In this document: positions 1 through 41,113 of the stretch, piece by piece
Position numbering within the stretch: position 1 is the first letter of the stretch
Layout of the letters: every line of letters starts with the position of its first letter
DNA from: Chrysochromulina tobinii
Lineage: Eukaryota
DNA length: 41,329 nucleotides
Assembly: GCA_001275005.1 (NCBI GenBank)
Contig: JWZX01001780.1
Coordinates: 1 to 41,329 of the forward strand
Reading direction: 5' to 3'
Program-made: the position numbers and the translations under genes
The notes under the pieces: model-generated
What the model saw: the letters and a program-made list of their open reading frames with translations, nothing else
The model's database searches: none
Told to the model about the DNA's origin: nothing

Positions 1-96
1 GGCCTCAGTGCGCGGACAGCGTGCGTCGCCAGGGCGTCGCCAGGGCGACCCTGTGGGATCCACCACGCCCAAAACGCCGCCTCCCCCAGAAGATCC

Positions 97-1877
97 ATGG
101 ATTTGCTACGGCCTTCCGCGAAGCGCAGTCGGTGGCTCTTCCTTCCGGCGGCGATGCTTGTCTGCTGCATGCTTGGCCACGTCACTGCCGAGCTGTCGTC
201 GCCGCAATGGAACGAGGGCTGCCTCTGCGAGCTCAAGCCGACGCCCGCGGCTTCATCCTCGAGCCTCGCAATGCACACGATCTTTGGCCAGCGCTACTTC
301 CGCAAGAATGGGCGCGTCTCGCGGTTCTGCCCGTGCTCTGTCGAGACTGTGCAGCAGCTCAACCAAGAGCTTATCGCGCCGCTCCTCTTCCCGCTGCTGA
401 ACAGCACGTACTTCCGCTACGTCAAGCTCTCGCTCGAGCGGACATGCCCATTCTGGGACGACGGGCACGGCATGTGCGCGCTGCGCGACTGCGCCGTCGA
501 AGCGTGCAGCGCGGACGAGGAGCGGCGGCTGGACCAGTGCGGTGAGGAGCTCGGCGACGACCAGCTCGGGGATGTGCAGCGCACGGACGCCGCGACGCTC
601 GGCGAGCAAGCTCCGTCCTGGGACCTTGCTGCTTCCCGGTGGACAGACCAGCTCGAAGTGGACAACGACGGCGGCGCCGAGTACGTGGATCTCGTGGACA
701 ACCCGGAGCAGTACACGGGGTACAGCGCCGCCGCGGGCGCCTCGCGCATCTGGGACGAGCTCCACACGCACAACTCGTTCGCTGAGCACGGCGCCGACGA
801 TGCGCGCCACGCGGCGCCGATGGCGGTGGAGCAGCGGCTATTCGCGCGGCTGCTCTCGGGTCTGCATGCATCGGTCTCGTCGCACATTGCGATCCACTAC
901 CTGCTCGACCGGCGCAACGGCACCTGGGGGCTCGAGCTCGACGAGTACGCTAGACGGTTAGGTGAGCACTTAATAGACGGTTACGCTAGTCGAGTACCGG
1001 TCGCCGGAGAGGCTGCATCCCTCGATGATGCTCGATTGCCTTTGATTGCCGCTGATGATGAGTGATCATGCTTGGTTAGGTAACCACCCGGAGAGGCTGC
1101 ACCATCTGCACCTGACGTACCTGACGGTCCTGCGGGCGCTCGAGCTGGCGGCGTCGCACCTGAGCGAGCGCTTTGCGTTCTCGACAGGCATGCCCCGAGA
1201 GGACGCGCGAGTCGCGCGCGAGGTGCGCGCCCTCCTCGCCTCCCGCCCCGAGTGGCCTCTCACGTTTGAGGAGCAACGCGCCTTCGTGGGCGTACGATGC
1301 GCCTCGACGCTGGTCGCCTCGGCCGAGCAGATGTCCAAATTAGGCAGCTCGGACGACACAAATACTGGATGCCATCACGGCGCCGAGGAGGAGCTGCTCG
1401 CTGCGCGCACGCAACTGCTCGGCGAGTACCGCTCGCGACTGCAGAACATCTCGAAGCTCATGGACTGTGTGGGGTGCGGCCGCTGCCGGCTGTGGGGAAA
1501 GCTGCAGGTGCACGGTCTCGCGACGGCGCTCTCGCCCAGCATACCAGTGCTCACCACGGCGCGTGCTCCCTGCTCCACAGGTGCACGGTCTCGCGACGGC
1601 GCTCCGTATCCTATACGCTCCCCACCGTCAGCTTGTGCTTCACTCGCTGCAGAGGCCCGACGTCGTCGCGCTGTTCAACCTCCTCGGCCGTCTTGCCCAC
1701 TCGGTCGAGGTGGCGCGCGTCGTCGTGCCGCTGCTCGGCGGGTCTCCGCATTCGAAGTGCTCGCCGCGCGGGTGCAAGGCGTCCGAGTGGATCTCGGGCG
1801 ATGGCGACGATGAGACCAGCACGGTCCACCCCGATGGGCTTTTTGGCGCCGCCATGGGCGCCTCTCTCTTTAGTTGA
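97..1877 (+). CDS. ERO1: ER oxidoreductin 1 (ERO1); exons 97-961, 1080-1507, 1581-1877
   Basis: Signal-peptide-like N-terminus; CPFW...CALRDC shuttle cysteines; YVDLVDNPEQYTGY; LLSGLHASVSSHI; C-terminal MDCVGCGRCRLWGKLQ (CxxCxxC). GT-AG introns restore RLGNHPERL and KLQVHGLATALRILY. Confidence 0.93.
962..1079 (+). other. Intron (118 nt), ERO1 intron 1; motif-A-like 3' half plus patchwork copies of flanking exon
   Basis: GTGAGC...TTAG; GGTTAGGT at both junctions (956-963, 1074-1081); GATTGCC/CTGATGA repeats. Confidence 0.85.
1508..1580 (+). mobile_element. Introner-like intron (73 nt), motif B, 27-nt perfect flanking duplication
   Basis: CAGGTGCACGGTCTCGCGACGGCGCTC at 1505-1531 and 1578-1604; internal AGTGCTCACCACGGCGC; ends CCACAG. 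Confidence 0.85.
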
Positions 1878-2531: not shown

Positions 2532-5348
<2,817 letters not shown>

Positions 5349-8634: not shown

Positions 8635-11600
8635 TCATCCGCGGGGACTGCCGCTCGGCGGCCTCGGGATCGCATAATGACCATCACCGGTAGCCGCCGC
8701 CCGCACCAGCGACGCCGGCGGCCCACCGGCCACGCCGCTAGGCGGCGTCCAAACGCGCTCCATCTTATGTGGAATGAGCCCAGTGGCTACTTGGCCAGAG
8801 GGGCGCGCGGGCATGAGTGAGCCCGTGGAGCGCCGTCCCGGCGTGGGGGGACGACCGAGCGCGAGCGGCGTGTTGAGCGCATTCTCGAGCGGGGTACGCG
8901 GGCGTGCCGAGGAGGCGGGCGGCGCGAGCGGCGAGGTCGCGAGCGCGGACCTCGGCGCGAGGGGCGTCGTGGTGAGGGCGGCGATCTTGGAGTTTGGCAG
9001 AGGCGCAGGGTCTGCAAGCGTGTAGATCAGGCTGTTGAGCGCCGAGGGCGTCAGCGCGGCCGACCTTGCCGTCGAGCCCACGACGGCGCCACCTGCACCA
9101 CTTGCTGGCGACGTAAGAGGCAGCGGCAGCCTTCCCGAGGCATGGAGCTTCGACATGGGGTCGGTGAGCGTTGTGACCGTCGCGGCGCGAGGCGGTACGC
9201 GCGGCACGGAGGCGGAGGGGCGCAGCCCTCGTCGAGGTGTATCGCTTTCGGCCGCTCGCATGTGCCGCTCGAGCATCCCTGCATCGGGCAGCGAGGGCCT
9301 CGCGCTCCGCTCGCGCCTCCGCCGCCTCGCGCAGGCTCTTGTGGGACAACTCAATCGCAGCCTGCGTCGCGGCAGCCGCCTCGGCGGCCGCGGTCTTGGC
9401 GCGGAGACGCAGCTCGTCAGGGTCGATCCCGGCATGCCCACGCGCCGTCTCGAGCGCCTCGTCGGCGTTCTTGGCGCGCGCCTGCTCGAGATAGAGCTGC
9501 TCGCGAAGCTTGGCCTCGGTCTCTGCGGCCTGCGCGATCTCCCACCGAGCTCGCTGCAGCTCGGCACGGAGCTTGTCGGCCACGTCCTTGGACTGCTGTG
9601 CTTCGGCCACCTCTCGCTGCACGTACGCGTCGAGCTCGTTCATCTTGAGGTACGCTTCGCGCGCCGTCATCACGAGACTCCCCTCTTGCTTGCGCAGCGC
9701 AGCGACCGACTCGCTCGCCTGCGAGAGCGCCGTGCTGAGCAGTTGCGTCTTCTCCATCTCGTCGTCGAGCTTGTTCGAGATCGCATCGCGCTCCTCGAGC
9801 GCCTTGTCGACGGCCTTGCGGCTCGCCTGCTCGGTCGCGACGCCCAAGACGACGCGTCAGCTCGCCATCAGTTTCCATCAGGGCCACTCATAGGCAATCA
9901 GAGGTCATCAGCTCACCTGCTCGGTAGCGACGCTCTCGCAGCGCACGTCCTCGGCATCGGCCTCCGCGTCACGCAGAGCCTTTCTCCGCAGGCCGAGCGT
10001 AACCGTCAGGCGCGAACACTGCCAGCGCAGCCGCGCGCGTGGTACCGAGCGTTGCAAGCGGGCCGCCATATCCTCCGCCGAGTCTTGCAGCAGCGCGAGC
10101 GCGCGTACGGTGTCTGCATGCACGGCACGCGTCTCATCGAGCGCGGCGCTCTTCTCTGCCATGAGCCGCTGCAGCCTCAAGACTTCCTGCATCACATCCG
10201 TCAGCGTGGGCGCGCGCTCGGTGGTGAGCACTTGCATGCAAGGCAGGCCATCAGCATGCAATCAACGTACCTGCATCACATCCGTCAGCGTGAGCGCGCG
10301 CTCGAGCTCGTCGGCCCTCGCCTGAAGCGCCTTCAGCTCGGCTTGCAGTTTGGCCGTCGCCTTCTCGAGCTTCGCCTTCTCGAGCTTCATGAAGACATTC
10401 TCACTGGTGAGAGCGGTGTTCTTCACGAGAAGGTCCGCCTTCTCCTTGAGCGCCCGCTTGAGCAGCATGTCCAGATTCGTCTTCTTGTGCAGCTGGTCCT
10501 CGAGATCCAGCTGCACCTGCATCGCCTTCTCCTTCTCGCGCCGCACTCGCTCCCTGTAGATGATCTCGACGTGCTTCGCAGAGTATTCCGAGTCGGTTTC
10601 ACGCAGCATCGAACCCGCGGCCTCGTCGATGGCTTTGTTGTCCGCCGACGTGGCCGCGATCCCGAGCAGCTTGTACAGCCTCATCGCGAGCAGCCCTTGG
10701 CTGCTGCTGCTGCTCCCGCCACCGCCACCGCTATCCTTGTCCTTGCTGCCGCTGCTGCCGCTGCTGTCCTTGCCACCCTTGCCGCCACCCTTGCCGCCGC
10801 CCTTGAATGAGCCGCCCTTGAATGAGCCGTCCTTGGCGCCGCTAGGCTCATTCAGCTCGCTCAAGTCGAGGTTGAGCATGCCGATGACGCCCCCCGAAGG
10901 ACCACCCACGACGTTGGCGGGCAGCGGGTGCCCCGAGAGCACCTCGTACTCACCCACAAAGTCTCCTGGCTGCGCGGTCTTCTTGTGTGCAAAGCCCTGC
11001 TCGACCGAGCCGTGAAGCACGATGCCAAAGTGCCCAAGCGTATGCTCACGCAGCATGATGGTCTGCCCGGCATGGAACTGGAGGATACGCATCCCGTCGA
11101 AGAGCATGCTCACCTCTTCCGCCGACAGCCCACGCTTCTCGAGCGCTGCCCGCGCCTTGTCGAAACGCGACTGCTTAGCGTCGGTGGCGCCGGCCCCGGC
11201 GCCGGCGCCTCCTCGGAAGCTCCCGACTGCCATGGCGAGGCGCAGCACCGCCTCAGAGGTTCGCGGGATGATCTCCTGGATCTGCTCCATCTTGCGCACG
11301 GCGGCGCGTCCCATGGCGCGCACCAGCGTCGTCGCGGTCGTCGCCGACTTTTCGAACAGTCGAGGCATGCTCCCAAACTGCACAGCCGCAACGGTGCCGG
11401 CTGAGATGCCGATCATCGAGGCGCCGCGCTTGCCGCCGCGGAAGAAGGCCATTTCGCCGACTATTCGTCCAGGCGTCAGCGTGGCGAGCACGTGCGACCC
11501 GTGCCGCACCTCGAGCTGGCCGCCGAGCAGCAACCCAAACCACGAGGCGTCCTCGCCTTGCGTGACAATCTCCTGGCCCTCGGAGAAGTCGATAAAGTCC

Positions 11601-11713
11601 AGAAAGGGCAGCAGCTCGTCGAGCTGCGACTCCGTGAACCCACGGAAGTCCTGCGACACGCACTGGATGGCCGAGAGCGCCGCACGGTGCTCTTCGTGCA
11701 TTTCTCCTGGCAT
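8635..11713 (-). CDS. Tandem cyclic-nucleotide-binding domain + long coiled-coil protein; introns 10187-10270 and 9827-9916; apparent frameshift near 9277-9279
   Basis: FSEGQEIVTQGEDASWFGLLLGGQLEV...PGRIVGEMAFF...RGAS (cNMP domain); second degenerate copy (PGDFVGE); heptad-rich middle; Pro/Ser-rich tail. Confidence 0.78.
9827..9916 (-). mobile_element. Introner-like intron (90 nt), motif A, 23-nt flanking duplication at the 3' end
   Basis: GTGAGCTGATGACCTCTGATTGCC...; 9821-9843 vs 9911-9933 21/23 identical; splicing gives VATEQ|ASRK. Confidence 0.85.
10187..10270 (-). mobile_element. Introner-like intron (84 nt), motifs A+B, 35-nt flanking duplication at the 3' end
   Basis: GTACGTTGATTGCATGCTGATGGCCTGCCTTGCATGCAAGTGCTCACCAC followed by a copy of the upstream exon (10186-10220 vs 10270-10304, 1 mismatch). 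Confidence 0.88.
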
Positions 11714-11925
11714 TGTGCGGCCGACTGAAACGAAGTATTTTTGTGCAATATTTCTGACGACTCTTTGGTTTTTACGGCGGTTGATGTGATCGCTGTCACC
11801 TTACGACGGTACTGTTACATGAAGTCCTGAGGTCTTCAGCTCGCGTGATCTCCGTTTCCAAAAGAATCCGGCGTCAATCCGGCAATGAATCCGGCAAAGA
11901 ACCTTTTCGCGTGAGAGGGTTGCCT

Positions 11926-14289
11926 ATGCCCTCGCAGTCCTCGCAGCCCGACCCGCCGCCGGCGGCGGCGCCCATGCGGCTCAACTTTGGTACGGGCAAC
12001 GCCTCGCCTCGCGCCGCCGCCCTGCTTCGCGTGCCGATGCTCTCGGGCTCCAACCAGCACGGCGCAGTCCGTGTCCACGAGACGAGCTCAAAGAAGAAGA
12101 AGCACCTCTCCGCGTGGGCTGTCTTCAAGATGCTGCCAAAGGAAGTGTACATCGTCCTGCTCATCGACCTGCTCAACTCGTACCGCTCTTTCGGCTTCCG
12201 CTCCGTCCAGTACATCTACCTCGTCAACGAGTTTGGCGTCTCCGATCTGGACGCAGGCAAATTGCTCGGCGTGCAGGCGTGGCTCATGGTGGTCTTCGGC
12301 ATGCTCGGTGCGATGCTCGTGGACTCGTGGGGCGTGCGCAACACCGCCATCACCGCCCTATCGGTCGCCGCCGTCAGCCGCGGCCTGCTCGCCTTTGGAC
12401 AGGAGCGTAACACCATGGTCTTCGCACTGATCGCGCTCGCGCCTTTCGGCGAGGCGGTTCTCTCGACCGGCATCTACACGGTGGCGCTTAAGAAGCTGAC
12501 GACGCCCACGACGCGCGGCCTCGCCTTCGGCGTCCAGTATGGCGTCTTCAACCTCGCGGGCGCCCTCGCCGATGTGGCCGCCGACACGTTGCGTAAGTCG
12601 GACATTATGCTGCCGCGCTGGCTGCCTTGGCTCGGCGGTACGTACTGGTCGGGCCTGCGCGTGCACGTGTTCTTCACGTGGCTGGCGGTGCTCGCCGCGC
12701 TCGCCGTCTCCGTCGCGTGCCTGTACGATACCGTCCTCGTCCCTCTCGATGAGGACGAGCGCGAGGCTGCCAAGGGCTCAGCCTCGCCCGGCCCTGTCAC
12801 TTCCCCACTGCTCGCTGAGCTTCGTCATTCCGCCAACGCGGCGGAGCGTGCTCGCGGGTACGCGGTGCGCATCGCGCCCAAGACGGCGGCCGCGCAGCCG
12901 CCGCCGCTGCCAACGGCCAGCGAAAGTGAGGACGAGGACGAGGACGATCAGGATGAGGCCTCCAACTACGAGGCTTTCGAAGAGCGCAGCAGCGCCGCCG
13001 CCAGCGGCGGCAGCAAGGGCGGCGGCGGCGGTGCCGGCGCCGCGCCTCAGCGACAGCGGCGGCGGCGGCGAGCGACGGCGCTCACGGCGGCGCGTCGGCT
13101 CGTCGCGTCATGGCTGCGCCTCGCCCAGGAGCACGCGAGCAGCGCGGGCAAGTCGTTGCTCGAGCTACTCGGGATGCGAGCCTTCTGGCGCGCGCTCTGG
13201 CTCTCGTGCTGCCTGCTCTTTGTGTCCAAGCAGGTGCTTGCCTGTGCTTGCCTGTGCTTGCCTGCGAGTACCTGTGATTACCTGTGGTTACCTATGGTTG
13301 CCTGTGATTGCCTGTGCTTCTTTGTGCCCACTGAGTGCCACTGATCGCCACTGATCGCCACCGATTGCACCCGAGCAGTGGGGAGATATGGACCAGCTGC
13401 TGCCGCCCTTTTTGGAGCGTAACTACGGTGAGGACGTGCCCATCTTCTTAATCCACTCGTTGAACATGTGGATTGGCATGTTCGGCCCGTCGCTCGCGGC
13501 CGCGCTCACCATGCACCTCGAGGCGTTCGAGGTGATGCTGCCTGGATTGTGGGTGATGGCGCTCTCGCCTGCGTGGCTCGCCTTCGACCCGAGCGTAGAA
13601 GCAGTCGTGTGCTGGATTGTCTTCCTCTCGCTCGGCGAAGTGCTCTGGTCGCCGCGCCTCTCCGCGTGGATCGCGTCGGTGCGTCTCTGATGGCCGATGC
13701 TGAGCTCTGATTGCGTCCCTCATCTGATTGTCGCTCTGAGTGCGCCTGATGACCTTCGATTGCCTCCCTCATCAGGTGGCGCCCGAAGGACGGGAGGGTG
13801 CCTTCCTCGCGCTGCTCTCAATGAAGAGCCTCATCACCACCATCCCGTCGACCGCGCTTAACGGCTGGATGAACGCGGTATTCATCGCCCAACTGCCCTA
13901 CCTGCCGTCTGATCGCTGCTGATGACCTCTGATTAACATTGATGACCTCTGATGGTCCCCCTCATCAGGTGCTCAACCCCAACTGCCCTAGCTGCCGCGA
14001 CGAGCGTACCGGCCACTTCTGCTCTGAGCTTGTGCGGCTCAACGGCACCTTTGACGGGTGCAGTCCTCCCGGGCTCGGGATCCATCACGCGTGCGTGGGC
14101 GACGAGCATAGCGGCTCGATGGTGGCTCGTCGGTACGCGGACGGGAGCGGTCTCGAATGCCCCTCGACTTGCCAGCAGTGCCCGGGATGGGAGGGCGACG
14201 CGAAGCTGATGTGGACGATCGTGCTGCTCTCTTCCATCTCAAGCCCTGTGATGGTCCAGCTCTCGCTCAAGTACCTGCGCGACAGCTGA
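11926..14289 (+). CDS. MFS transporter, POT/PTR-like; exons 11926-13233, 13379-13678, 13776-13877, 13969-14289
   Basis: Multiple TM helices; GAMLVDSWGVR (MFS motif-A-like); RGLAFGVQYGVFNLAGA; SLGEVLWSPRL..VAPEGREG; long acidic central loop. Confidence 0.85.
13234..13378 (+). other. Intron (145 nt) composed almost wholly of 10-mer tandem repeats
   Basis: CAG|GTGCTT...GAGCAG|TGG; CCTGTGCTTG-type units grading into CTGATCGCCA units; restores SKQWGDMDQ. Confidence 0.85.
13679..13775 (+). mobile_element. Introner-like intron (97 nt), motif A
   Basis: Degenerate CTGAT repeats; ends CTGATGACCTTCGATTGCCTCCCTCATCAG; restores IASVAPEG. No clear long duplication. Confidence 0.82.
13878..13968 (+). mobile_element. 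Introner-like intron (91 nt), motif A, ~29-nt degenerate flanking duplication
   Basis: Starts GTATTCATCGCCCAACTGCCCTACCTGCCG versus exon GTGCTCAACCCCAACTGCCCTAGCTGCCG; CTGATGACCT repeats; ends CCCCTCATCAG. Confidence 0.85.
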
Positions 14290-18297: not shown

Positions 18298-18350
18298 TGT
18301 GCATGGTGCAAGCGGAACTGATGTGCATGGTGCAAGCGGAACTGATGTGC
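18298..18350. repeat. 24-bp perfect tandem duplication upstream of the LRR gene
   Basis: TGTGCATGGTGCAAGCGGAACTGA x2.2. Confidence 0.85.
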
Positions 18351-23465: not shown

Positions 23466-23712
23466 TACATGTAGTACAGGACACTGTTTCGTTACTTTAG
23501 CAAACTAACGAAAGCAAACTTTAACCAAAAAAGCAATTAAGGGAGGGGGGAGGGGGGGGGAAGTAGGACCTTTTTCGCATGTTAATGTTTAGAGTGCTAC
23601 CGCCGGCTTCCCCACCCCCGTTTGTCGTTTCTCATTTCGGGGGTGTGTAGCCATGGTGAGTAGCTCTTACCTTAGTTATCTGCTGGTCACACACACCTTG
23701 CTATTGGACCGG

Positions 23713-24840
23713 TCACATTCTAATTCTTTGGCGCGGATGCGGGCGCGACACACTAACAGGTGTCCTATAACAGGGACACGGTACTACACGCCTGGAAAAC
23801 TGCGAGCAAGTAGGGTGCCGTGAGTTGCACCGCAGCAGAGCAGTGAGCATCTCATTGTAGCACGTCATGCGCGAGTTGGCGCATAGCAGCAGCCTGAATA
23901 CGTCGAGAATCTTTCGCATCATGTGCTCCTCCTTGCTTGCCACTAACTGGCTCAGATCTGCCTGGTCCAGCGCCTCCAGCTTCTGCTTCACCTCAGCCCA
24001 CTCCGGCCTGTTGAACTCGTCGCGCACCACCTGGTTGCCTCTGACACGTGGCCACTGGACACTGGCTGTGACTCCATCATGAAGTCTCATCTTGCCGTTG
24101 TCAGACACGTCAACACGGAGTTGCGCTCCGTCGTACGCATTGACGGCGATGAAGCCTTGCGCGTCGCGCTCCTCGCGCATCGACATGGGCCCGGCACTGG
24201 AACGCCAGGGTTCTTGCCCGGGACAAGGAACCCTGGCTGACGCCTGACCGGTCACCGCCGTCGAATACCCCCAGCTGCCCGGCGCCGAGTGGGCATGAGA
24301 ACATTGGTGAGCGGAGCCTGGTCCCTGGTGGCCAGGGAGCAGCGAAAACGCGCACGTATGTGGGCACGTTTCGCGCTTTGTGCCCACACATTCCGCCGCC
24401 TCCGGCTGGACAAGTGCAGCGAGCATCGTGCCAGCAGCGAGCATGCGCAGCACAAAGGTGGCTGGCTCCCGATCGGTTGCGCTGACCACAGTCGGTGGAA
24501 ACGCGACGCTCGTGCCAAATGTGCAAGGAGGGCCTCTTGTGCAAGGAGGTCCGGCCCGATGGTGATGCCGCCGTATTCCTTGAAGGAGAGGATAGCGGTG
24601 AGAGCATAGCCAATGCGTGCGGTGATTGGCATGTTTGTCTCGAGTACAAGGGCTCGAGTACAGGTACTCAGGTAGTTGGTAAGGTAGTTGGACTGTGTTC
24701 CTTGCTCTCGTTATGCTCAAGGGTTTCATAGAGCACCATACCTGACTGTTGAAGAAGGTGGCCATTCTGTTCTCCAAGGTCATGACGCCATACGTTTCAG
24801 CGTCCAATCGATCCTCGTGCGTTATTAGGTAGACACGCAC
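23713..24840 (-). pseudogene. Degenerate coding remnant, possibly Helitron Rep-like fragment
   Basis: ANSRMTCYNEMLTALLRCN resembles the YN..L....CN motif of Helitron Rep proteins; patchy frames; no helicase motifs seen. Confidence 0.3.
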
Positions 24841-25016
24841 AAACGCACAATAACATCAGGTCGCGCCACCTCGAGGCACACAACACGTAAGCAGCACAAC
24901 CGTGAAAACAATACAGGACTTTCCTTCCTTTCACAGATTCCATGAGTGTGAACGACGTTCTTGGAACTTGCCAAAACAAGACTTGACTTTTGACGAGCCT
25001 CTCTTTCTTGGGCAAT

Positions 25017-25964
25017 ATGAGCGCGGGATCAAGGCGAGTGGCGGGAGGCAGCCAGGACGTGGTGGCGGGCGCACGCGTGTACATTTCTGGTTTGGTGCGA
25101 CGTACTGACCTGAATGGCTGCGTGGCCGAGGTTGGCAGCTGGCTCGAGTCCGAAGGGCGTTGGAGCGTCACCTGCGCCGGAGCAGTCATTGCAGTCAAGG
25201 AATCGCATCTGACAGCAGCATCGCATGCCGGCCCGTGCGGAGCCTTAGGTCGATGGTATGAGGTTTATCTCAACCACGCCGCGGCCGAAGCCGCCACCTG
25301 TGCCGCGGATGCTCTTGCCGATTCGAACTCGATCTTGGTACAGGGCAACGTCGCAAGCCCGGCCGAGTGTGAAGTCCTAAAGGCGTTCGCGGCTTCAAAC
25401 TACGACAAGCTTTACGGCAATTCCTCACCTGCATCCTGGGCTGGACCCGGAGGAGCCTCGGGCACGGGGCGTGCGCGCATGGCCCTCGCACGTATGGGTA
25501 GCACCAGTTTCATCGATGCCGAAGGACAGCTGCTGTGCGAAACTCTGCTCGTACGCTCTCTCAAGCTCCTCGATGCGCAGCTACCAACGCTTCACAAACG
25601 TCTCTTTTGCGCGTGCCCACAGACGTGCGTGGCCAACGCGAAGCTCACGTTTTCGCAAGGGGAGCCTGCCATCAACATTTACGATCGAGGCGGGGCATTC
25701 GACGCGCACACGGATAAGCAAGCGCTGACCATCTTGATCGGGCTCTCTGAGGGCGATGAATTTGAAGGCGGGGGCACCGCGTTCTATGCAAATGACCGTG
25801 TGGCGAGCGACCAATCTAACTTGGCCGAGCTCGATCGTACCGAACCCTCCCTTATACTACGTCCACCCGCTGGCTGCGCTCTGTGCTTCGGCGGGCAGGC
25901 GGTTCATCGCGCCATTCGGGTGGAGTCGGGACGGAGAATCATGTTAGTCGCGAGCTTCACATGA
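25017..25964 (+). CDS. 2OG-Fe(II) oxygenase (prolyl-4-hydroxylase-like) with N-terminal SH3/KOW-like module
   Basis: INIYDRGGAFDAHTD (HxD), FEGGGTAF, H..RVESGRRIMLVASF; N-terminal GARVYISGL...LNG...GRWSV...KESHL. Confidence 0.85.
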   Translation: MSAGSRRVAGGSQDVVAGARVYISGLVRRTDLNGCVAEVGSWLESEGRWSVTCAGAVIAVKESHLTAASHAGPCGALGRWYEVYLNHAAAEAATCAADALADSNSILVQGNVASPAECEVLKAFAASNYDKLYGNSSPASWAGPGGASGTGRARMALARMGSTSFIDAEGQLLCETLLVRSLKLLDAQLPTLHKRLFCACPQTCVANAKLTFSQGEPAINIYDRGGAFDAHTDKQALTILIGLSEGDEFEGGGTAFYANDRVASDQSNLAELDRTEPSLILRPPAGCALCFGGQAVHRAIRVESGRRIMLVASFT

Positions 25965-27009: not shown

Positions 27010-29444
27010 ATGATGTGTCTCGTGTGTGCACCGGCTCCCAACGGTGTTTTTGCACGAGGTCAGTACGGGTTCCGGGAACTTTGTCTCAAGTGCTACGGGT
27101 ACATGGACGACCGGCTGGGTGTGACCCGCTCCCGGCAAACCGCCCGCGCGGTCATCGCTCGCGTCAATCCGGCCAAGGGCATGACGTTCGACGCCTCAAT
27201 GTGCAAGTACCGGGCCGTGCCGGCGGTGGCCGCTGCGCTCGGCTATACGGTGTTGACTGCGGAGGATGAGCGGGATCCCAATGCGCCGCCGGGCTGGAAC
27301 CTCTTCTGGACAGACCTTTCGGTCAGCCACCAGCGCGTTGCTGCGCTGCTCCCGCTGCAGAAAGTCAATCATTTCGCGGACATGACGACCTTGTGCAACA
27401 AGGCAACGTGCGCCAGCGTACTCAAGCGCGTGAGCCGCTCCTTCCCGCTCGAGTACAACTTCTACCCGCGGAGCTGGAAGCTGCCCAAGGAGGCGGCGGC
27501 GCTCCGCAAGCTCATGCTCAGCCCTGAGGCGCCGCGCGTGCTCATTGTCAAGCCCAACCGCGGTTGTCAGGGCGTCGACATCTCCATCTGCTGCACGAAC
27601 GACGAGCTCGACACAGCGCGTCAGGAGATGGGCCAGCAGTGCGTGGCGCAGGAGTACGTGGACAAGCCGCTGCTGCTCGACGGGTACAAGTTCGACCTGC
27701 GCATCTACGTGTGCGTCACGTGCTGCTCGCCCCTGCGCGTGCACTTGTATCGCGAGGGCATCGCGCGCCTGTGCACCGAAAAGTACGAGGCGCCCTCGGC
27801 GGGAGGACCGGCCATGATGGCGCCGCCGGCTGCCGCTGCGAGCCAATCTCCGCGTAGCTCGGCCAGTCGGCCAATGTCGGCGATCTCGGCCGCCAGGGCG
27901 GCGGGCAGGGTGGCTGCCAAGGCGACTGGTAAGGCGGACGCCAAGGGCAGTGCCAGCAGCAGCAGCGGCAGTGGCGCGAGCAACAGCAGAAATGAAAGCG
28001 GCTCGTCAACGGTCGCCCAGGCGGGGATGGAGGGAGTGTCCCCGTCAGGCAGCACCGCCGCGGGTGCCCCGGGAGCCGCAGCGTCGGATGGCGCGAGCTC
28101 GAGCGGCGCAGGCGTGCGCGCGCCCAAGACGGCGTCCAAGGTGACGGCGGCGGCGGCGGCGACTGACTGGCGCTACCGGCATCTGACGAACTATGCGATC
28201 AACAAGACGCATCCCGACTTCGTTGTGGGTGGTGAGGACGGCTCCTCGAAGCGGCTGCTCACCGAGCTGCTCGACACGCTCCGCCGCGACGGCTTCGACG
28301 TGGACATGCTCTGGGGGGAAGTACAGCAGCTGGTGGTCAAGACGCTGATCGCCGTGCAGCCGCACATAGCGCATTCGTATACGAGCTGTCGGCCCGCGAC
28401 GGACACGCACCCGTTCTCGTGCTTCGAGCTCCTGGGCCTCGACCTGCTCATTGATGAGAGTGGGCGCCCGTGGCTGCTCGAGGTGAACCACTCGCCCTCG
28501 CTCGAGCGCTGTGTGCTGATGACCGATGATGACCACTGATGACCAATGATTGCTTCCCTCATCAGGTGAACCACTCGCCCTCGCTCGCGACCGACACGCC
28601 CCTCGACCGCGAGCTCAAATCTCGTCTGCTCTCGGATACGATTCGACTCTGCTCCTTCTCGGCCGCCGAGGCGCGCTTGGTAGCACGCGCGGCGGAGCGG
28701 CGCGACGCGGCGCCCGCCGCGATCCCGAAGCTGCGCCCCATCGCCGAGCCGGGCTCCTCGGAGCGCTCACGGCGGCTCAGTGCTGACGGCGGCATCTCGA
28801 CGCTGCGTGCACGCCTAGAGGTCGCGCGTGAGCGTTCGAGGAGCGCTACGAGCGCTACGAGCGGCTTCAGCTCGGTCGCGGCGTCCTTTGGCTTCGGCGC
28901 GCGCGGGCTGGAAACACGACTCGGGATGCCCGGCGTCAAGCAGCAGCTCGTGCAGCAAGGCCTCGCGGAGCGCCGCCAGCAAGCAGAGCTGACCCAGGCG
29001 GAGCTGCTACGGTTGCGGGAAGAATATGAGGCGGCCAATTCGAGCTCATTCGAGCTCGTCTTCCCGGCGCCACATGAGAAGCTCCAGTCTCTCTATGAGA
29101 TGCTGCTCAACGCGTCGCTGCGCGCGTACATCGAGGAGTCCCCCGTCAACTTCAACGGCGGTGCGCGCGTGCCCATCCCGCCGCTGCTGCCACCCGACGC
29201 TGGTGCCGACTGGTGGTCGATGATCAAGCTCGGGCGCGTGGGCGAGCGCATCCTGCAGATGGGCAGTGACGCACCCAGCGCCATCGCGCGCTCGGCACAG
29301 CGCGACGCGGTCGCTTCGCGTACGGCGCGTCCGGGGGGGGAGCGCGAGCACTGCCGACCGACGGGCGCGCCGCCGGCCGACGAGGAGGACGGCGTCGACG
29401 GCGACGACGCCTCCGCTGGCCACTGTGTGACCTCGGAGATGTGA
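27010..29444 (+). CDS. Tubulin-tyrosine-ligase-like polyglutamylase (TTLL6/7/11/13-like); intron 28483-28565
   Basis: WNLFWTD, QKVNHF, FYPRSW, IVKPNRGCQG, QEYVDKPLLLDGYKFDLRIYV, HLTNYAINK, CFELLGLD, PWLLEVNHSPSL..DTPLD. Confidence 0.92.
28483..28565 (+). mobile_element. Introner-like intron (83 nt), motif A, 24-nt perfect flanking duplication
   Basis: AGGTGAACCACTCGCCCTCGCTCG at 28481-28504 and 28564-28587; TGATGACC(A/G) 10-mers; ends GATTGCTTCCCTCATCAG. Confidence 0.9.
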
Positions 29445-29983
29445 TCTCGGAGTGATCTCGGCCAGCAGGCGTCGTGCTGGGCGATTCGGAGCTGCCACCG
29501 TCCATGATGGTTGATGTACGGTAGAGGCGGCTGCTCCATGTATTCGTGGACGGAGGGAAATGCAGGATCAACTGGGCGGCATCGAAGATATGGGGCCCGG
29601 CCATTCAAAGCTGAGAGCTGTATTGCATCGTTGGCAATCGTTCGAGACGTTCGATCGGATCGTTGATCGTCGTCACGGGAAGCTCGGTGCGTGCCCGGGT
29701 ACCGACTTATCTTCACCACTTCAGTAACTTTAGTCTGTACATCCGCTAAGTACCGTATCCCACAATCGATCAAGAACCGCCCGTGGCCGTGCCGACTTAC
29801 ACATGCGCGATGCTCGAACCAAATTCGATTGTTCATCCGCGCCCCCCTCGCGGCCGGCCGGACTTTATTCGGTTGGCGTCGACAATGATCGGACTTGCCG
29901 TGGCCCCGTGGCTGCACAGGACGCCGAATGGACCACGTAATTACGTTCTACCGCTCCACCGGCGCACCGCCGACCCAACGGCA

Positions 29984-32900
29984 TTATGGATTCGCCGCCT
30001 GGGCGCTCAGCCACTGGGCCAGTGACTGGGCGCCAAGCCGATACCTCGACCCCGTCTCCGTCCACACGCACGAGGCAGGGTAGTCACGACGCTCGGGCGG
30101 CACAAAGCTCGTAGTCACCCACTTGCCGTCACCCACGCCCGGCTTGCCGTACACGCGCCCTCGGAAGCGACCGTCCGCAGTCAGGCTCCACTCCTCGAGC
30201 AGAGGGGCAGCGCTCGGGGCAGCGCTCGGAGGACGCACCACCTCGGAAGACGATGAGGCAACGGAGGTGGGTCCCGCGCCAGTCGCAGGCACGGCAGCCG
30301 TGACACCAGCCCTCGTGGCAGCGGAGGCCGATGCGCTGGCTGACGCGGCGGCCGGAGCAGCGCGCAGGGCCGCCTTACCCTTGGGTGGTGGTGCGCCGAG
30401 CGGTGGAGGCGCCGTGTCGAGCGGTGGAGGCGCCATGCCGCGCGGTGGAGGCGCCATTGACAGCTGCGGCGCCATTCGTGGCGCCTTGGAGGCAGGAGCC
30501 GCATCCACGGCTCCCGTCACGGCGCCACTCGTAGCACCTCCATCCCTGGCGGCAGCCACGGCAACGCGCTTCTTCCCAGCGCTCGGGGCAGGTGTGCCTT
30601 CGCCCGGCGCGACGCCACCAGGCGGTAGCGACGGTGGTCCGGTTCCAGCACTCGCACCGGAGTCGAGACAGCACCAACGGCCGTACTTGATCGGAACGGG
30701 TACGTGCGGAGCGGGTGGAGGCGCAGAGTCCGCCCTCGGTGCGCTGAGGTGGGCACTCGCGCCGTAGTGAGCACTTGCATGCGAGCCGGCCCTGGGTGCG
30801 CCGGCGGAGGCCTCGTTGCTCGCGTCGGTGTCGGCTATGCGTTTGTCTCGGCGTGAGGGCAGGCGGGCAATGAGCGGGGCGGGTGCGACGAGTGGCGCCG
30901 AACCCGCCGACCCTGCCGAGCGGTCGACACACTGCGGACCATCTCCAAGCTTGCTGACCATTCCCATGCCTGCCGTTACAGCCGCCGATGAAGATGCCAC
31001 ACTCTTCTTGCCCGCGGCCGCCGTCACCGTCGCCGCCGGCGGCGGCGGCCTTGCTGCGCCCACAGCGGCCGCGCCCGCGCCCTTGGGTGCGCCGCGGCCG
31101 GAGGTGGCTGTAGGGGCGGCGGGCGGCTCGACGAAGGTTGGGCTCTCCGGCTGCGGCGGCCGCGGTCGCTTGCTTGAGAGCTCGCCGTCGAAGGAGCCGT
31201 CTAATGAGAGTCCATCGACAGAAGCGTGATCGACCTCGTGACGAGATTGTCGAGATTGACGAGACTGATCGGCCTCGCGACGACGGCGCTCGGACGCACG
31301 GCGCTCCGCCTCGCGCGGCGGCGGCGGCTGCGGCGGCGGCGGCGGCGGCTGCAGCTGCGGCGGCGGCTGCTGTCTCTTCTCCACTCGCTTCGCCTTGCGC
31401 GCCGAGTCCTTCTCGGCCTCGACCTCGCGCTTGAGCCGCTGCGCCTCGGCTCGCTCCTTGTCGCGCGCTTGCTGCTGCCGGCGCTGCTGCATCTGCTGGA
31501 ACTTGGCCCAAAAGTCGGGGTCGTCGAGTGGCAACTCCTCTCCGTCTCCAACGGCCGCCCGAAACGAGGCGCGTGCAAACAGCGACGAGCCGCCGCTGCC
31601 ACCTCCGAGGCCGCCGCCGCCGCTGCCGATCACGCCACCGCCGCCCATACCGGCCGAAGAGCCTTTAGAGGTCGATGTGGCAGCATCGGCCGCTGCTTCC
31701 CTCTCTGCGGCATCGAGCATCTCGTCAAGGTCTTCCTCTCCGTACCCCGGGTCGTCCGCGTCCGAGCGGAGCAATCCATAGGCGCCCCAGCGCAACAGGT
31801 CCTCGATTTCGGCGCGGCTCAGCCCGCTGCGCTCGCTTGCGCCCCGGGAGAGCGGACGCGCCGCGCCGCCGCCGCCTTCAGCGGGCACGGCGACAAGGTC
31901 GGCATCCACCAGGTCGCCGTCCACCAGGTCGGCATCCACCTTCGCATCCGCTACCTCCGCATCGTCGGCCTCGCCGCCCTCGCCGTCGGCGCTCTCGCCC
32001 ATCAAATCGAGCTTCGGGGGCCGACGCGGGTGCGTCTCGGCCTTCGCCGTTGCAGCTGGCCCGACGTCAACAAGCACCTCGTGCGCCGCGCCGAAATCTC
32101 CCCCTTGGAGCAGCGCGTGGTCAAGGGAGAGCTTCTTCATGGCCCGATCGAGCATGCGCTCCTCGTACGTGCCACGCGTCACGAGCCGGTAGACTTGCAC
32201 AGGCCGCTCCTGCCCAATGCGGTGCGCGCGCGCCTGGCCCTGCATATCGCCTTGTGGGTTCCAATCGGAGTCGAAGATGATGACTGTGTCGGCCGCCGTC
32301 AGGTTGATGCCCTGTCCGCCCGCGCGCGTCGTGAGCAAGAAGACGAAGCAGGCCGCGTCGGATTGGAACCGATCGATGGCCCTCTGGCGCGCGTCCCCCT
32401 TGACGGTGCCGTCGACGCGCTCGTAGTCGCCGAGCACCGGTGCACGCAGCTCAAGGTAATCTTCGAGTAAGTCGAGCATGATCGCAAACTGCGAGAAGAG
32501 GAGCACCTTGTGCCCGCGCGCCTTGAGGCGTGGCAACAGCTTGTCGAGCAGAACCATCTTGCCTGAGGAGTCGACGAGGGTCCGTACACCCTGCTCCACC
32601 GTCGCGCTCAGCCTCGATCGACGCTCCTCGAGACCCAAGTTGAGCGCCGAGTTGAGCGCCGGGTTGAGCGCCGAGTTGAGCGCCGAGTTGAGCGCCAAGT
32701 TGAGCGCCGAGTTGAGCGCCGGGTTGAGCGCCGGGTTGAGCGCCTCGCTCGCCGACGCCGCAGTCGAGGCTCGAGCGATGCGGGGTCGGTTGCCTGCCGT
32801 GGCCTTGGCATCAAGCTTGACGCTCGCCGGCAACGCGGGCGCGGGCGTGGGCGCAGGGGCGACAGGTGCCGGCGGGGGTAGCTGGCAGAGCTGCTCGGCG

Positions 32901-34346
32901 GCGAGCTGCGCACTCACGAGGGCAGCCTGCTCGCCCTCCGTGCCTCTCTCTAGGAGCATCGGGTGGTTACAGGCCTTGCGCAGCTGCATGAACACGTTGC
33001 GCAGCGACGAGCGCGGGTTTTGGATGTGCTCCACCGAGCAGTCCATCAGAGCGCGGTACACGCGCATCTGCGAGGGCGTGAGAGACACCTTGAGCAGTGT
33101 CTCTCTCTTCGTAGGAAGTGGCTGAGTGAGCTCGGCCTTGGTGCGACGCAGCACGTACGGGCGTAGCATCTGCTGCAGCTCCACTACCTGCTCCGGTCGC
33201 CGCAGGTCACCGTACCGGCTGAGTAGCTCGGGACGACGCGCCTCCCCGAAAGCCTCCTCGTCCAAAAAGGACATCAGACCGAGGAGCTCTGGTACGTCAT
33301 TTTGCACTGGCGTGCCCGTGAGCAACGTGCAGTGCGGCACCTGCAGCGCGCGCAGCGACGCGGCGAATTTGGTGCGTGGGTTCTTGAGCCGGTGCGCCTC
33401 GTCGACGATCAGATACTGCCATGGGATGGCCGAGATCGCTGCGAGCTCAGCCGTGAGCCCCTCGGGCGCCGTAATGAGCACATGGTACCGCCGGCAGCCG
33501 GTGCGCCGCTGGCGCGCATCCGTGTGGTGCTCCTCGTTCGCAAGCAGCGAGTGGCGCGCCTCGGCGGGGCCGGTGAGCACCACGCCGCTCAGAGAGGTCC
33601 AGGCGCGCACCTGAGGAGGGAGGCAATCATTGGTCATCAGTGGTCATCAGTGGTCATCAGTGGAAGAGGGCCGCATGCAGCGACGTCCAGGCACGCACCT
33701 CACGCTCCCAGTGTGCGAGCGTCGAGACGGGCGCGACGACCAAAAAGGGACCTTGCACGTTCCGATGGCGGCTCAGCCATTCGAGCGTGAGCAGCAGCTG
33801 GCATGTCTTACCCAGCCCCATCTCGTCCGCCAGGATGGCGGAACGGCCCGCGTGCCAGCATGCCAGCAACCAATTAATGCCCTCGAGCTGGTAGCCACGC
33901 AGCGCACGCCCCGGAGGCAGCTGCAGCTCCGGCTCGGTCTGGGGTCGGAAGGGTCGGCTCCTCTCAACAGCCCGCATCTCATCGGAGGGCGCAGGCAGAG
34001 GTGGGCGCACCAGCAGCGCGTGGCAGCGGCGCCATGCCTCAGCGGCGCCACATAGCCGGCGCGCGCGCGCCCACGGTAGCCAGGAGAGCTGCGCATAGTC
34101 AAGGCCACGCCACTTGATCAGCACTAACGAGCGCCGGCGAGGCGGCGTTTGTGCGGCAGCAGCGGCAGCAGCGGCAGCAGCGGCAGCAGCGGCAGCAGCG
34201 GCAGCAGCGGCAGCGGTCGATGGCACTCGCCCGGCCTCTGCCGCTGGACCGGCAGAGCAACCCCCGCTCGGGCGCCCTTCTGGCGCGCCCTCCCGATGAC
34301 GAAAGGGCGTGTCGTTGTCGCCGCCGCCGCCGCCGCCGCCGCCGCT

Positions 34347-36924: not shown

Positions 36925-36995
36925 TGTGTATCCCGGCTCCCCCGGTGTTTTTGTACCGGTGTGTGTCCCGGCTCCCCCCGGTGTCTTTTTACCGG
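36925..36995. repeat. ~35-bp tandem duplication in the divergent CHD/ART intergenic region
   Basis: TGTGT(A/G)TCCCGGCTCCCCC(C)GGTGT...TACCGG twice. Confidence 0.8.
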
Positions 36996-37059
36996 TAAAC
37001 ACTATTATTGCCGTGCGTCTTTTGGGTGTGAGGTCGAGGCGCTCTCTCGAGCGCAAGCC

Positions 37060-39318
37060 ATGCCTGACATGGAGGCTGTCGAGGCAGCCGCCAATGCTGG
37101 CGTGGCATCGCGCTTGCTCGAACTCGAAGAGGAGAACCTGACATTGCAACGGACCTGTCGAATGCAGCAGGATGAGATCGATCAATTGAGTGACGAGATC
37201 TATGATCTGCGCTGCGCCCAGGACAGCAGCGCAGCCAACGAAGAAGATGTTGCTGCCGCGCCAGCGGCACCACCAGCAGAGTCGCTAGCGCTCGCCACCG
37301 TAGAGATTCGCAAGGCCCGACAGCACACCGTCGCTATGCTGCGAGCGATCCGCACGCTCCAGGCCGCGGCCGGACTGCCCGCTGAAACGGACCCCACAAC
37401 CATGGGTGCAGGCCTCCGCAACATGGCTGTCGCCGAGCTTCGCCACCTAATGCGCCTGACCGAGGACGTGGTGCGCCACTCCCAGAGCGCCGTGGAGGCC
37501 CTGTCGATCGGCCGGCCTTTGACCTCGCGCGCACGCTACCTGCAGCCGCTAGCGGAGCTCATCGGTCCACCGCCGGCTACACGCACCTGGGAGGACGAGT
37601 GGATCGCCCTGAACGTGGAGGCCTTCGCGATCGCCGGCCGGATGGAGTGCGCCAACGAATTTCACGTCAAAATGCACGACACACCAGAGAGACTGCGAAC
37701 CAACTTTAGCCCAACCATCGACGACCTGCTCCGCTCACCCTCGTGGACGCGTGAGCGTGCGGAGCTGTACGTGTTGCTCGGAACCGCGGCAGGATCCATC
37801 AGCCGCGCGCTGCGCGGCCGCGATTCGTGCTACGTGGCCAGCACGTACGCGCTTTGCGAAGCTCTGTTTGAATCGCGCCCCGACTCGAGGAGCAAGCTAC
37901 CACCGCGGATGTTCCGCAACATGCTCGGCGAGTGCAGCCTCACCGAGGCGGAGCCGAACTGGAAGCAGCTCGAACAACCGGACGAGACGGGCTTCTGCGG
38001 CCTCACGAGCATGGCACTCACGCTCGTCGACTGCATGCCGCAGAGTTTCACCGAAACCGGCTTCGCTGTGCGCGTGGCAGCCAAGCACCGCGTTGAACAC
38101 AAGCCGGCTCCAGGAGACGTGGTTGCCTTCGACTCAGCGCCCGATGACGAACACGGCGCCCACACCGCCATCATTACTACCTCCAACAGACAGGCGTGCT
38201 TCCCGCCGAACACGCAATTCCGCCTCAAGGAAGTGTTCGGTGCTGGCGAATGGGAGGCGCCTGGAGGCAAGTTCCCACAGCAGCGTCTCCTTGTCGTGAC
38301 CGCCACTTACCATCCGCCTCGCTCGGATGTGGTGGGCAAGTTCTCGCAGCTCTTTGCCGACCAGCAGCCGAAGCTCTGCGGCAGTCGTGAAGCACTCATC
38401 TTCGGGCGGCCCGAGGCGTGCGCGCTAGGCCTCGACGGCCTAGCTGACAACCCAATGCTCTCCATGGCGGATGAGTTTGCGCGCGACCTCGAGTGGACGA
38501 CGTGGGAGGGCGCCAAATACACGCTCCGAAGCGAGTACGAATATGTTACGGGGTCGGCCGTGTCGGCGCCCTGCGGTGCGTCCGGCACACGAGACGAGGC
38601 GAATGACGGTAAGACGCTTGCCGACTTTCAGGCAGCTGCCAACGCGTGGATCGCCGACCGCCGGCGTAAGGGTCTCGGCACAATACCCGGAGAGAGCGCC
38701 CTGTTGACGCGTGACGAAGTGCTCGCCGTGCGACTGATCACGGGGCCCGCCCACCATCCGATCAACGGGTTCCTTCGCCAGACTTCAAAGGTCGTTGGCG
38801 AGCACCGGCGCATTCTAGCGCAGCACCCGAGCCTCACCTTTGCCGCGACCGTCGGCCACGTGTGCCGCGCCCTCCGCAAGCTCGCTGATGTGGCATCGGA
38901 GGAGGAGATCAGCACTCCCCTGTGGAGAGGCATGCGTGGAGCGGTGCCGAGCAGCTTCTGGGAGGAGGACTCGGGATTCATACCCACCTCGGCACGGCAG
39001 GGAGTAGTCGTCGAGCCTGCCTTTATGTCCACGTCGCGTCTAGAGCAGGCATGCATCGATTTCATGCAAGCCGATGGCCCCAATGTGCTGTGGGTGATCC
39101 AGCCACAGCCGGCGACAGGGGGCGTCGATTGCGCCTTCCACAGCGGGGCGAGTGTGAGCATACTTTCGCAGTTTGCCCACGAAGATGAAGTGCTCTTTGC
39201 GCCAGGAACGATGCTGCGTGCCACACCTGAGTCCACCACCGCGAGGGCGAGCGCTCCCTTCGAGGAGGCGGGTAAGAAGAGGTATCGCATGATCAAGGTC
39301 GTGCCCTCGGTGTTTTGA
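37060..39318 (+). CDS. Coiled-coil + ADP-ribosyltransferase (R-S-E type) domain protein, with a degenerate first ART-like domain
   Basis: EVLAVRLITGP..INGFLR, LWRGMRG (R), FMSTS (S-T-S), SQFAHEDEVLF (E-x-E); upstream echo MFRNMLG..LTS..FPPNTQFRL. Confidence 0.8.
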   Translation: MPDMEAVEAAANAGVASRLLELEEENLTLQRTCRMQQDEIDQLSDEIYDLRCAQDSSAANEEDVAAAPAAPPAESLALATVEIRKARQHTVAMLRAIRTLQAAAGLPAETDPTTMGAGLRNMAVAELRHLMRLTEDVVRHSQSAVEALSIGRPLTSRARYLQPLAELIGPPPATRTWEDEWIALNVEAFAIAGRMECANEFHVKMHDTPERLRTNFSPTIDDLLRSPSWTRERAELYVLLGTAAGSISRALRGRDSCYVASTYALCEALFESRPDSRSKLPPRMFRNMLGECSLTEAEPNWKQLEQPDETGFCGLTSMALTLVDCMPQSFTETGFAVRVAAKHRVEHKPAPGDVVAFDSAPDDEHGAHTAIITTSNRQACFPPNTQFRLKEVFGAGEWEAPGGKFPQQRLLVVTATYHPPRSDVVGKFSQLFADQQPKLCGSREALIFGRPEACALGLDGLADNPMLSMADEFARDLEWTTWEGAKYTLRSEYEYVTGSAVSAPCGASGTRDEANDGKTLADFQAAANAWIADRRRKGLGTIPGESALLTRDEVLAVRLITGPAHHPINGFLRQTSKVVGEHRRILAQHPSLTFAATVGHVCRALRKLADVASEEEISTPLWRGMRGAVPSSFWEEDSGFIPTSARQGVVVEPAFMSTSRLEQACIDFMQADGPNVLWVIQPQPATGGVDCAFHSGASVSILSQFAHEDEVLFAPGTMLRATPESTTARASAPFEEAGKKRYRMIKVVPSVF

Positions 39319-40110: not shown

Positions 40111-40157
40111 AGGTCATCTGTGAAGGTCATCTGTGAAGGTCATCTGTGAAGGGCATC
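40111..40157. repeat. 13-bp tandem repeat (~3.5 copies)
   Basis: AGGTCATCTGTGA repeated, downstream of the bromodomain gene. Confidence 0.8.
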
Positions 40158-40332: not shown

Positions 40333-41113
40333 TCATGGCGCACCCCCTGTGAGTGAGATGGTGGCTGCAAGCAGCGAGCGCACGTGCATGTCGAGCCGGA
40401 TGAAGGTCTTGGGCTCGAGCGCGTCCACGTCAATCTTGATTTCGCGCCCGTCGGCGCACGTCTCGACCGCATGCGACGAGAACGCCTCGGCGAGCCGCCC
40501 GATCTGCACTCGCTGGTCGTCGCTCAGCTTGACGACGTTGTCAAGAAGCTGGTGGCGCATCTGCGGCGTGATGAAGAAGGGCGCTCCGCTCTGCACAGGC
40601 ACGTTGCCCACACCACGAATGGACAGAGGCGGCGCGCGCGTCACGCCGGACGGCTTGCGTGCGAGGCCAGGAGGACGAGATTCGGCCTCCGAGAACTTCT
40701 TGGACGCAATCGAGCGCATCTCGTCAATGTACTTTTTGATCCACGAGTTCGGGCCGTTGTAGGTGAGTGCGTTCTGCCAGACGAGGTCGACGTCCGCGCG
40801 CAGCGCCGCCACAGTCTCGTACTCTAGGCTCTCGAGCTTTCGAAGGATGGTGCTCAAATCCATCGGATGCTCGATCACCTGTGGGGAAGGGGGGGGCGCC
40901 GTGGTGAGCACTTGCATGCAGGGCCGGTGGAGCTCAAATCCATCGGATGCTCGATCACCTCGAGGTAGTTCCACAACTGCAATTTCTGCCAGTCGACCGG
41001 GTCCTTGAAGTATTTGGCCGACGGCTGCTGACGCAAGAGCCTGATCACCTTGTGGTACCTGCTCGCTACCTCCTCGCGCCCCTCGAGGTACCTGGCACCG
41101 CCGCCGCCGCCGC

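Follow-up and report, generated by a model that had tools for sequence, protein, structure and literature searches.

Introns of Chrysochromulina tobinii that join a common splice cassette to a copy of the adjoining exon

Introners that take one splice site from the target duplication have been described as Polarella classes 4/5 and 6/8/10 and as Symbiodinium introner-like elements (ILEs; 10.1101/2020.10.14.339549), and family 5 of a marine Chrysochromulina sp. metagenome-assembled genome (MAG) co-opts a splice site with a 4-nt duplication (10.1101/2022.06.06.494994; PMC9860276). Intron gain by double-strand-break repair, with exon-intron repeats of 4-12 bp in 33/90 introns, is reported for Daphnia pulex (PMC4202315), tandem genomic duplication and intron transposition for 14 listed events in Mycosphaerella and Oikopleura (PMC3443670), and insertion by SD-MMEJ (end joining that is synthesis-dependent and mediated by microhomology) or Pol theta is characterized by 1-4-nt microhomologies, templates near the break, several rounds and direct-repeat scars (PMC7407515). 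Chrysochromulina tobinii, a haptophyte alga in culture whose genome measures 59 Mb and is probably haploid (PMC4580454), has 0 introner families in a 2025 screen (PMC12130899 supplement) and is found, within the part of the 2022 supplement covered (PMC9860276), only in the input table; a term search of the main texts of PMC11282704 and PMC12130899 returned no haptophyte passage, and the full-text literature, apart from subscription papers and bioRxiv supplements, held no description of the anatomy reported here in haptophytes. The present analysis concerns a stretch of 41,329 nt from this alga (assembly GCA_001275005.1, contig JWZX01001780.1, positions 1 to 41,329; the window), in which one intron of a TTLL gene and one of a CHD/SNF2 gene end in a nearly identical splice cassette, motif A, and begin with a copy of the exon that follows.

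Like the introners above, these are short introns repeated genome-wide which carry one splice site and receive the other from a duplicated exon, with a strong G at exon position +1 and an excess of phase 0. In the accounts consulted, however, those introners have a fixed duplication of 3-8 nt (4 nt in Chrysochromulina) and are conserved from end to end, whereas in C. tobinii the target duplication is not fixed and varies from 2 to 55 nt, junctions are microhomologous and sources often local (the marine families being compared by description). Only one half of the intron is common to the family, the other half being local exon sequence, and the both-ends similarity used as a filter in the 2022 screen is absent; one whole-intron copy is the exception. 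In its operation the family resembles introners whose second splice site is borrowed from a target duplication, yet it lacks conserved ends, a fixed duplication and inverted repeats. As in D. pulex, new introns are polymorphic, the terminal bases of the adjacent exon are repeated at the far end of the intron and internal repeats accumulate later; unlike there, repeats of up to 55 nt occur, and a splice cassette that recurs and is copied from other introns makes up the filler. The Mycosphaerella and Oikopleura cases have in common with ours that a duplicated exon gives a splice site, leaving the protein unchanged, and that whole introns are copied to new sites, but in C. tobinii a single event combines the two, genome-wide, with the duplication giving one site and a partial intron copy the other together with the branch motif. 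With SD-MMEJ or Pol theta insertion the introns share the junction and template traits, the several rounds and the direct-repeat scars; a tie to splice signals, not mentioned in the account consulted, is the difference.

A splice cassette and a copy of the adjoining exon

The TTLL intron (83 nt, phase 0; 28483..28565, + strand) opens with an exact 22-nt copy (28483..28504) of the downstream exon start (28566-28587), which provides the GT donor, and closes with a motif-A cassette (28516..28565) of 10-nt units and the acceptor CCCTCATCAG, with a candidate branch A at 28549. The CHD intron (88 nt, phase 0; 33611..33698, - strand) is built alike from a 21-nt copy with 3 mismatches (33678..33698) of its downstream exon start (33610-33590), again supplying the GT, and a cassette (33611..33660) with the end CCCTCCTCAG and a candidate branch A at 33627. 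Both ends consist of 10-nt units plus CCCTC(A/C)TCAG. An initial annotation of the window had pointed to the identity of the final 39 nt at 37 positions, which was recovered; it is reached by just 80 of 13,861 pairs of related intron ends, so that the TTLL/CHD pair is unusually close even inside the family. The 10-nt period likewise claimed was located by Tandem Repeats Finder (TRF) at 28517-28550 (TTLL) and 33626-33663 (CHD), and the unit variants of the GMD and MFS introns stand where they had been placed. CCCTCMTCAG is counted 5 times in the window where 0.20 would be expected, and TGATKRCCWC 9 times where 0.62 would be, both counts being reached by 0/100 shuffles. Splicing of the TTLL and CHD introns rests on protein continuity, homologues reading LLEVNHSPSLATDTP and the NCBI model KOO32417.1 (with KOO32419.1 one of the gene models on the window contig) linking WERE to VRAWT. 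RNA-contig joints come from positions 1-14500, where 5 of the 8 introns defined are joined GT..AG, as U2-type introns are; these five are members of the family.

Family statistics derive from at least 133 loci of culture and lake metagenomes, collected via a 19-nt acceptor pattern; 306 acceptor sites were reduced to 167 non-redundant terminal acceptors, and at least as many similar introns reside in unrelated genes. Exons of overlapping loci are 96-100% alike across data sets, and the loci therefore belong to the same or a sister species; the best named TTLL relative is from Prymnesium parvum. DNA-run bin depth reaches 9,964 at the CHD cassette and 43,163 at 40894, compared with 29-38 for single-copy contigs, a pile-up over the motifs which indicates a very abundant family, the depth itself not being usable as copy number.

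An anchored copy of 11-55 nt of the exon start, 50-264 nt upstream, was found for 78/167 acceptors, as against 1/167 when exon sequence from 60 nt farther along was used and 0.6% among 827 permutations. It is intron-initial in 53 cases and internal in 25; of 73 acceptors without a long copy, 19 have a short match of at least 5 nt (8% expected), and duplication length is thus a continuum. The exon starts with G in 159 of the 167, with GT in 123 and with GC in 23, and since the duplicated piece gives the missing splice site the mRNA is unchanged. The length of the copy and that of the remainder are anticorrelated (rho -0.69, n=31; -0.55, n=28), which keeps the introns near 65-100 nt. Cassettes lie sense to the coding DNA in 128/167 and antisense in 17 (266 versus 328 of 1000 in random DNA), and 79/128 introns are in phase 0. 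An allelic or paralogous source had been considered for the CHD copy, whose mismatches are all synonymous, and was rejected: 30 introns give 18 non-synonymous and 10 synonymous mismatches, spread evenly over codon positions (9/8/11), and the CHD case is put down to chance. Two to five copies are present in 17/53 copy-initial introns, many as tandem arrays of copy plus cassette. At L017 10019-10283, L014, L011 and L057 as many as six identical acceptors stand in an array, with a copy of the exon start after each; these are natural candidates for recursive splicing or last-AG selection.

The introns come in three forms: the start of the next exon copied ahead of a 3' cassette, the end of the previous exon copied behind a 5' cassette and, occasionally, a whole intron copied. 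The initial annotation had seen in the introns a pre-made cassette of branch-point-like motif, pyrimidine tract and AG, and such a cassette does recur ready-made across the genome, its branch reading being plausible; the exon duplication, the mirror form, the second family, the copying between introns and the allelic presence and absence had escaped it.

This second family, B, has a CTCAC motif mostly 22-33 nt ahead of the AG; among 135 loose matches 44 have a start copy (some of them tandem cassette repeats), 9 an end copy, 48 none and 34 lack a nearby AG. In a donor-type element, about 54 nt long (reference L009 9391-9464, minus strand), two motif-A units are joined to the family-B core. From its GT on the element is present in 7/68 core hits, mostly with an upstream-exon-end copy next, and a diagnostic base separates donor- from acceptor-type copies (8/10 versus 1/58, p 5e-8). 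Where the donor could be located, a 6-32-nt upstream-exon copy follows in 7/9 cases, the other two being one tandem copy and one without; mirror forms of the units alone also exist. A single full-length master intron with two splice sites of its own was rejected, as donor-type copies mostly end in upstream-exon copies and have their own diagnostic base.

Eleven introns were defined in the window, 7 of which have a flank copy scoring at least 10, 5 at the intron start and 2 at its end. Intron 1 of ERO1 (962..1079, +; spliced) holds scrambled bits of both flanking exons and units, with a shorter allele free of the upstream-exon pieces, and intron 2 (1508..1580, +; spliced, missing in two alleles) a 24-nt exon-start copy and a family-B cassette. 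The GMD intron (4688..4786, +) consists of an imperfect exon-start copy, GAGTGCCACC units and CCCTCATCAG. Both introns of the cNMP gene (- strand) are mirror forms, with units before a 17-nt upstream-exon-end copy (9827..9916; spliced) and a donor-type element before a 34-nt one (10187..10270; missing in two 99% alleles). In the MFS gene (+ strand), intron 1 (13234..13378) has long 10-nt unit arrays differing between alleles, and introns 2 (13679..13775; missing in 1/7 cluster members) and 3 (13878..13968), both spliced, carry motif A. The intron of a bromodomain-like gene (40879..40958, -), a label taken from the sequence, exon 1 being without a Pfam match, has a 31-nt exon-start copy and a family-B cassette. 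Intronic exon copies at L047 ~717-959 and in the window at 4688-4786 and 13878-13968 are patchily replaced by bases resembling units or donors, which looks like a conversion to the vocabulary of the cassettes.

A 57-nt in-frame insert at the CHD C-terminus (30744..30800, -) is likewise an exon-start copy with a family-B cassette; it begins with CG and hence has no donor and stays coding, as a misfire. RNA contigs of two runs cross it gap-free and it is found in 9/9 informative alleles. C-initial inserts of copy plus cassette also occur at L020 +3252, L006 +14601 and L043 +7970, with 57, 57 and 66 nt, all multiples of three.

The 10-nt periodicity extends to the wider intron set, lag-10 identity in the 167 acceptors being 0.43 versus 0.25 in shuffled sequence and 0.28 in exons. 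The unit-level tally that had been suggested gives 703 units, 173 of them distinct, with 10-nt spacing in 232 cases, and three units account for 254/703. Slippage and telomerase-like reverse transcription (RT) had both been put forward as source of the arrays: identical-unit pairs make up 22.5% within introns as opposed to 6.6% between them, and units amounting to 80 nt and 10 nt separate wild alleles, so that homogeneity within introns and differences by whole units argue for slippage and not for a fixed template. Intron repeats of 10-11 bp are reportedly mentioned in the 2013 Emiliania genome paper. An A at -17, present in 93% of 60 acceptors outside the pattern hits, is compatible with a branch point and a plausible candidate for it, though T at -16 (93%) and C at -13 (90%) are equally constant. 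CTGATGA is indeed the reverse complement of the terminal TCATCAG, as noted for the proposed hairpin, but the CHD intron ends in TCCTCAG, where the pairing is broken; a functional hairpin found no support, with 0/13 folds at z below -1.9 (CHD cassette z +1.2) and a compensating inverted copy in 1/17 variant ends. Stops in all three frames occur in 37/53 introns, compared with 28% of shuffles, a possible benefit when the intron is retained. Rfam searches of the window and five loci gave nothing at gathering score, two weak matches at E>3 and no U2 gene. At 4748-4776 an RNA contig, with depth 62 in one run and 12 in another, has several GAGTGCC-type units beyond its GMD match and is a unit-rich transcript of another locus.

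Alleles without introns and copying between introns

Presence and absence were scored on prokaryote-style gene calls, which stop at an intron and read through where it is missing; clusters were enumerated in part (TTLL 15/73) and counts are among the members listed. The TTLL cluster has 12 broken pieces (both gene halves counted), 2 unbroken and 1 uninformative. The gene is unbroken in P0247 (98.7% identical, on a 31,806-nt contig), in P0122 (98.0%), in 14/15 listed members of a 94.5% cluster and in 2/2 relatives at 62%. The intron is thus missing from near-identical alleles and sister lineages, which points to a recent gain. In the CHD gene the intron is present in all 9 informative DNA calls, also in one from a contig of, again, 31,806 nt; two of the CHD calls read DCF, as in TTLL. 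The cNMP intron at 10187-10270 is present in 9 and absent from 5 of 15; two intron-less 99% alleles still break at the next intron and are therefore DNA, not transcripts, and both cNMP introns are missing in an 84% lineage. Intron 2 of ERO1 is missing in P0291 and P0299, the latter retaining intron 1, and the MFS member without intron 2 retains intron 3. Altogether four window introns are missing in gene calls from 98-99% alleles, three besides TTLL with the neighbouring intron kept, and by these protein calls recent gains appear to be present in some relatives and absent from others.

Calls of TTLL relatives at 53-65% (P0124, P0129-P0134) break a few codons before the site of the window's TTLL intron, with ends reading LTASDCF-stop or VRSPLMGLDCL-stop like translated motif-A units; more distant relatives probably have similar introns at other sites. 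L050/L106 resembled a case of presence and absence, but the upstream sequences do not align, and paralogue pairs among the loci gave no usable intron comparison.

Copying from intron to intron is seen most directly in locus L034, where two 101-nt GC-AG introns, 96/100 identical, occupy non-homologous sites 2,868 nt apart whose flanks share TCG/GCAA. Both introns hold the exon copy of the downstream site, which gives the copying a direction. In the AAA-ATPase gene of this locus 0/15 hand-placed intron positions are common to the three AAA repeats, with 667 residues open. The region 7300-10900 of L034 holds 15 family introns in 3.6 kb, whereas in the window several genes of multi-kb length contain at most one. 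Eleven end-anchored pairs share at least 5 rare 10-mers, 2 of which were removed as paralogue artefacts; of the remaining closely related ends 4/9 pairs lie in one locus, compared with 1.9% expected (p 1.4e-5). Local pairs include some that link different genes on opposite strands; the TTLL/CHD pair, separated by 5,045 nt, is one of these and has a 13-nt signature found 4 times in 691 kb. Cassettes are more alike than expected when less than 1 kb apart (p 0.003), 1-3 kb apart (0.02) or more than 10 kb apart (0.01, n=10), and distant sharing is also seen (L006/L011). An anchored search for foreign exon copies gave 1/817 in the same locus and 2/8,224 in sampled cross-locus comparisons, which is chance-like, its filter having missed L034; clustering of introns inside loci is weak (gaps below 600 nt 29% of 97 versus 21%).

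At the junction of copy and array, microhomology averages 2.0 nt as against 0.7 under the null (n=22), with at least 2 nt in 12/22 junctions versus 17%. Both this and the position of templates near the break are traits of alternative end joining (alt-EJ) or SD-MMEJ. Upstream exons end in AG in 22/53 cases, compared with 6% of random G[TC] sites.

Origin of the introns

On balance we consider it probable that Chrysochromulina has a self-propagating intron family in which motif A forms the half with the branch-point-like motif and the acceptor, and that new introns arise during break repair, when one half of an intron already present, often one close by, is copied with its splice site into an exon and 2-55 nt of the target are duplicated. 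A nascent DNA end in an exon would switch to a donor intron at 1-4 nt of microhomology, copying would run through the splice junction of the donor half, and the end would return to its own locus slightly upstream at a G/GT-like match, duplicating the interval in an alt-EJ- or SD-MMEJ-like manner. Selection would then retain spliceable inserts of about 65-100 nt, slippage would afterwards raise the number of 10-nt units, and unequal exchange involving the flanking repeats would make arrays of copy plus cassette and could delete the intron precisely. Intron gain is likely ongoing, probably without a transposon. A wider form of this proposal, which we rate slightly less likely than not, holds that nearly every intron of the lineage stems from repair copying half of a neighbouring intron, that each becomes a template in turn, with G/GT microhomology self-reinforcing, that gain and precise loss proceed in populations today and that standard introner screens are blind to such a transposon-free self-seeding.

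Several points weigh against the break-repair origin. An enzyme or intermediate was not seen, no search for an RT having been made, and the end products fit an RNA template too. The pattern-based collection biases the acceptor set, although an exon copy is found in 25/60 acceptors outside the pattern hits; 89/167 acceptors have no long copy, only 22/78 junctions were scorable and one outlier of 11 nt lifts their mean. Of the 4 local pairs 2 are not independent, being introns of one locus, 2/11 pairs were dropped, and the 3-10 kb bin is not significant (p 0.14). Presence and absence come from protein gene calls and not from aligned DNA, so that some unbroken calls could be transcripts; no intron-less allele or paralogue was found among the collected loci, and as direct repeats ease precise loss, part of the polymorphism may be loss.

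The most serious competitor, which we nevertheless regard as rather unlikely, is RNA-templated gain, whereby an RT (of a non-LTR element in trans, or a repair polymerase) would start synthesis from a staggered nick, with excised or nascent intron RNA as template, and leave a partial copy with a target duplication that is long and variable. One of the ends coincides in every case exactly with a splice site, the sense bias is strong, terminal inverted repeats are absent, duplication length varies with truncation as in target-primed reverse transcription (TPRT), and donor-type copies stop a few bases past the branch motif as a trimmed lariat would. Mirror copies are instead cut at the 3' end, and no poly(A) was seen among the intron ends listed. 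Precise ends and orientation are, however, explained by selection for splicing, local copying passes across genes and strands, and the scrambled flank pieces of ERO1 intron 1 and the exon-spanning tandem arrays are DNA-level events. That no introns are gained at all, old ones being remodelled by tandem duplication over the splice junction and then precisely deleted, with polymorphism as loss, is improbable: such remodelling clearly occurs, as a later step, since 25/78 copies lie inside longer introns, arrays of copy plus cassette are common and alleles differ in the interior of ERO1 intron 1 and of MFS intron 1, but the gains are not accounted for in this way. Sister and outgroup calls lack the TTLL intron, the 84% lineage lacks both cNMP introns, the L034 intron sits at two non-homologous sites and no position is common to its three AAA repeats, by which this explanation is largely refuted.

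A classical introner, i.e. a non-autonomous DNA transposon (miniature inverted-repeat transposable element, MITE) bounded by CTGATGA...TCATCAG, would account for the very high DNA-run depth over the motifs, the splice site co-opted from the target duplication as in described introners and the 7-nt inverted repeat around the TTLL cassette. It is very improbable given duplications of 2-55 nt rather than a fixed 3-8 nt, an inner boundary that shifts by more than 30 nt, an inverted 7-mer within 100 nt in only 71/210 ends, a family B without such a repeat and hardly any antisense insertions. Hardly any credence is left for the version of the initial annotation, a telomerase-like RT reiterating a short RNA template into cassettes, with a hairpin aiding mobilisation or splicing. 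The strong 10-nt period and the small core vocabulary would suit it, but the 173 unit variants, homogenised inside introns, the allelic length changes, the lack of fold signal, covariation and, in the window and five loci, any Rfam match at gathering score speak against it, and exon copies and family B are left unexplained.

Other features of the window and significance

Some features of the window lie outside the intron family. An intergenic 36-nt repeat in two copies upstream of CHD (36925-36997) has the highest DNA-run depth in the window, 231,000, and is a separate very high-copy element. Non-intron tandem duplications of 12-79 nt at 5567-5854, 1844-1937, 18298-18350, 32638-32744 and 40111-40157 are numerous and show that local duplication is frequent throughout this genome. 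An open reading frame (ORF) of 752 aa (37060-39315) matches the ADP-ribosyltransferase family PF01129 weakly and below cutoff (E 0.005), and the stretches 2532-7422 and 22518-25964, with lower GC (54-60%), ORFs and few family motifs, are possibly acquired genes. Searches for the motifs in viral contigs gave 0, 1 and 0 matches, the single one at a contig end and probably host DNA, and GTDB gave 5 single 19-mer matches, taken as chance or contamination.

The origin of introns outside transposon bursts has long been open, mainly because sources and intermediates are rarely caught. Here one cultured alga displays where the copies come from and in which direction they were made, along with misfires, the two mirror products and segregating alleles, which makes the question of repair versus RT directly testable. 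That C. tobinii scored zero suggests that surveys demanding similarity at both intron ends undercount ongoing intron gain.

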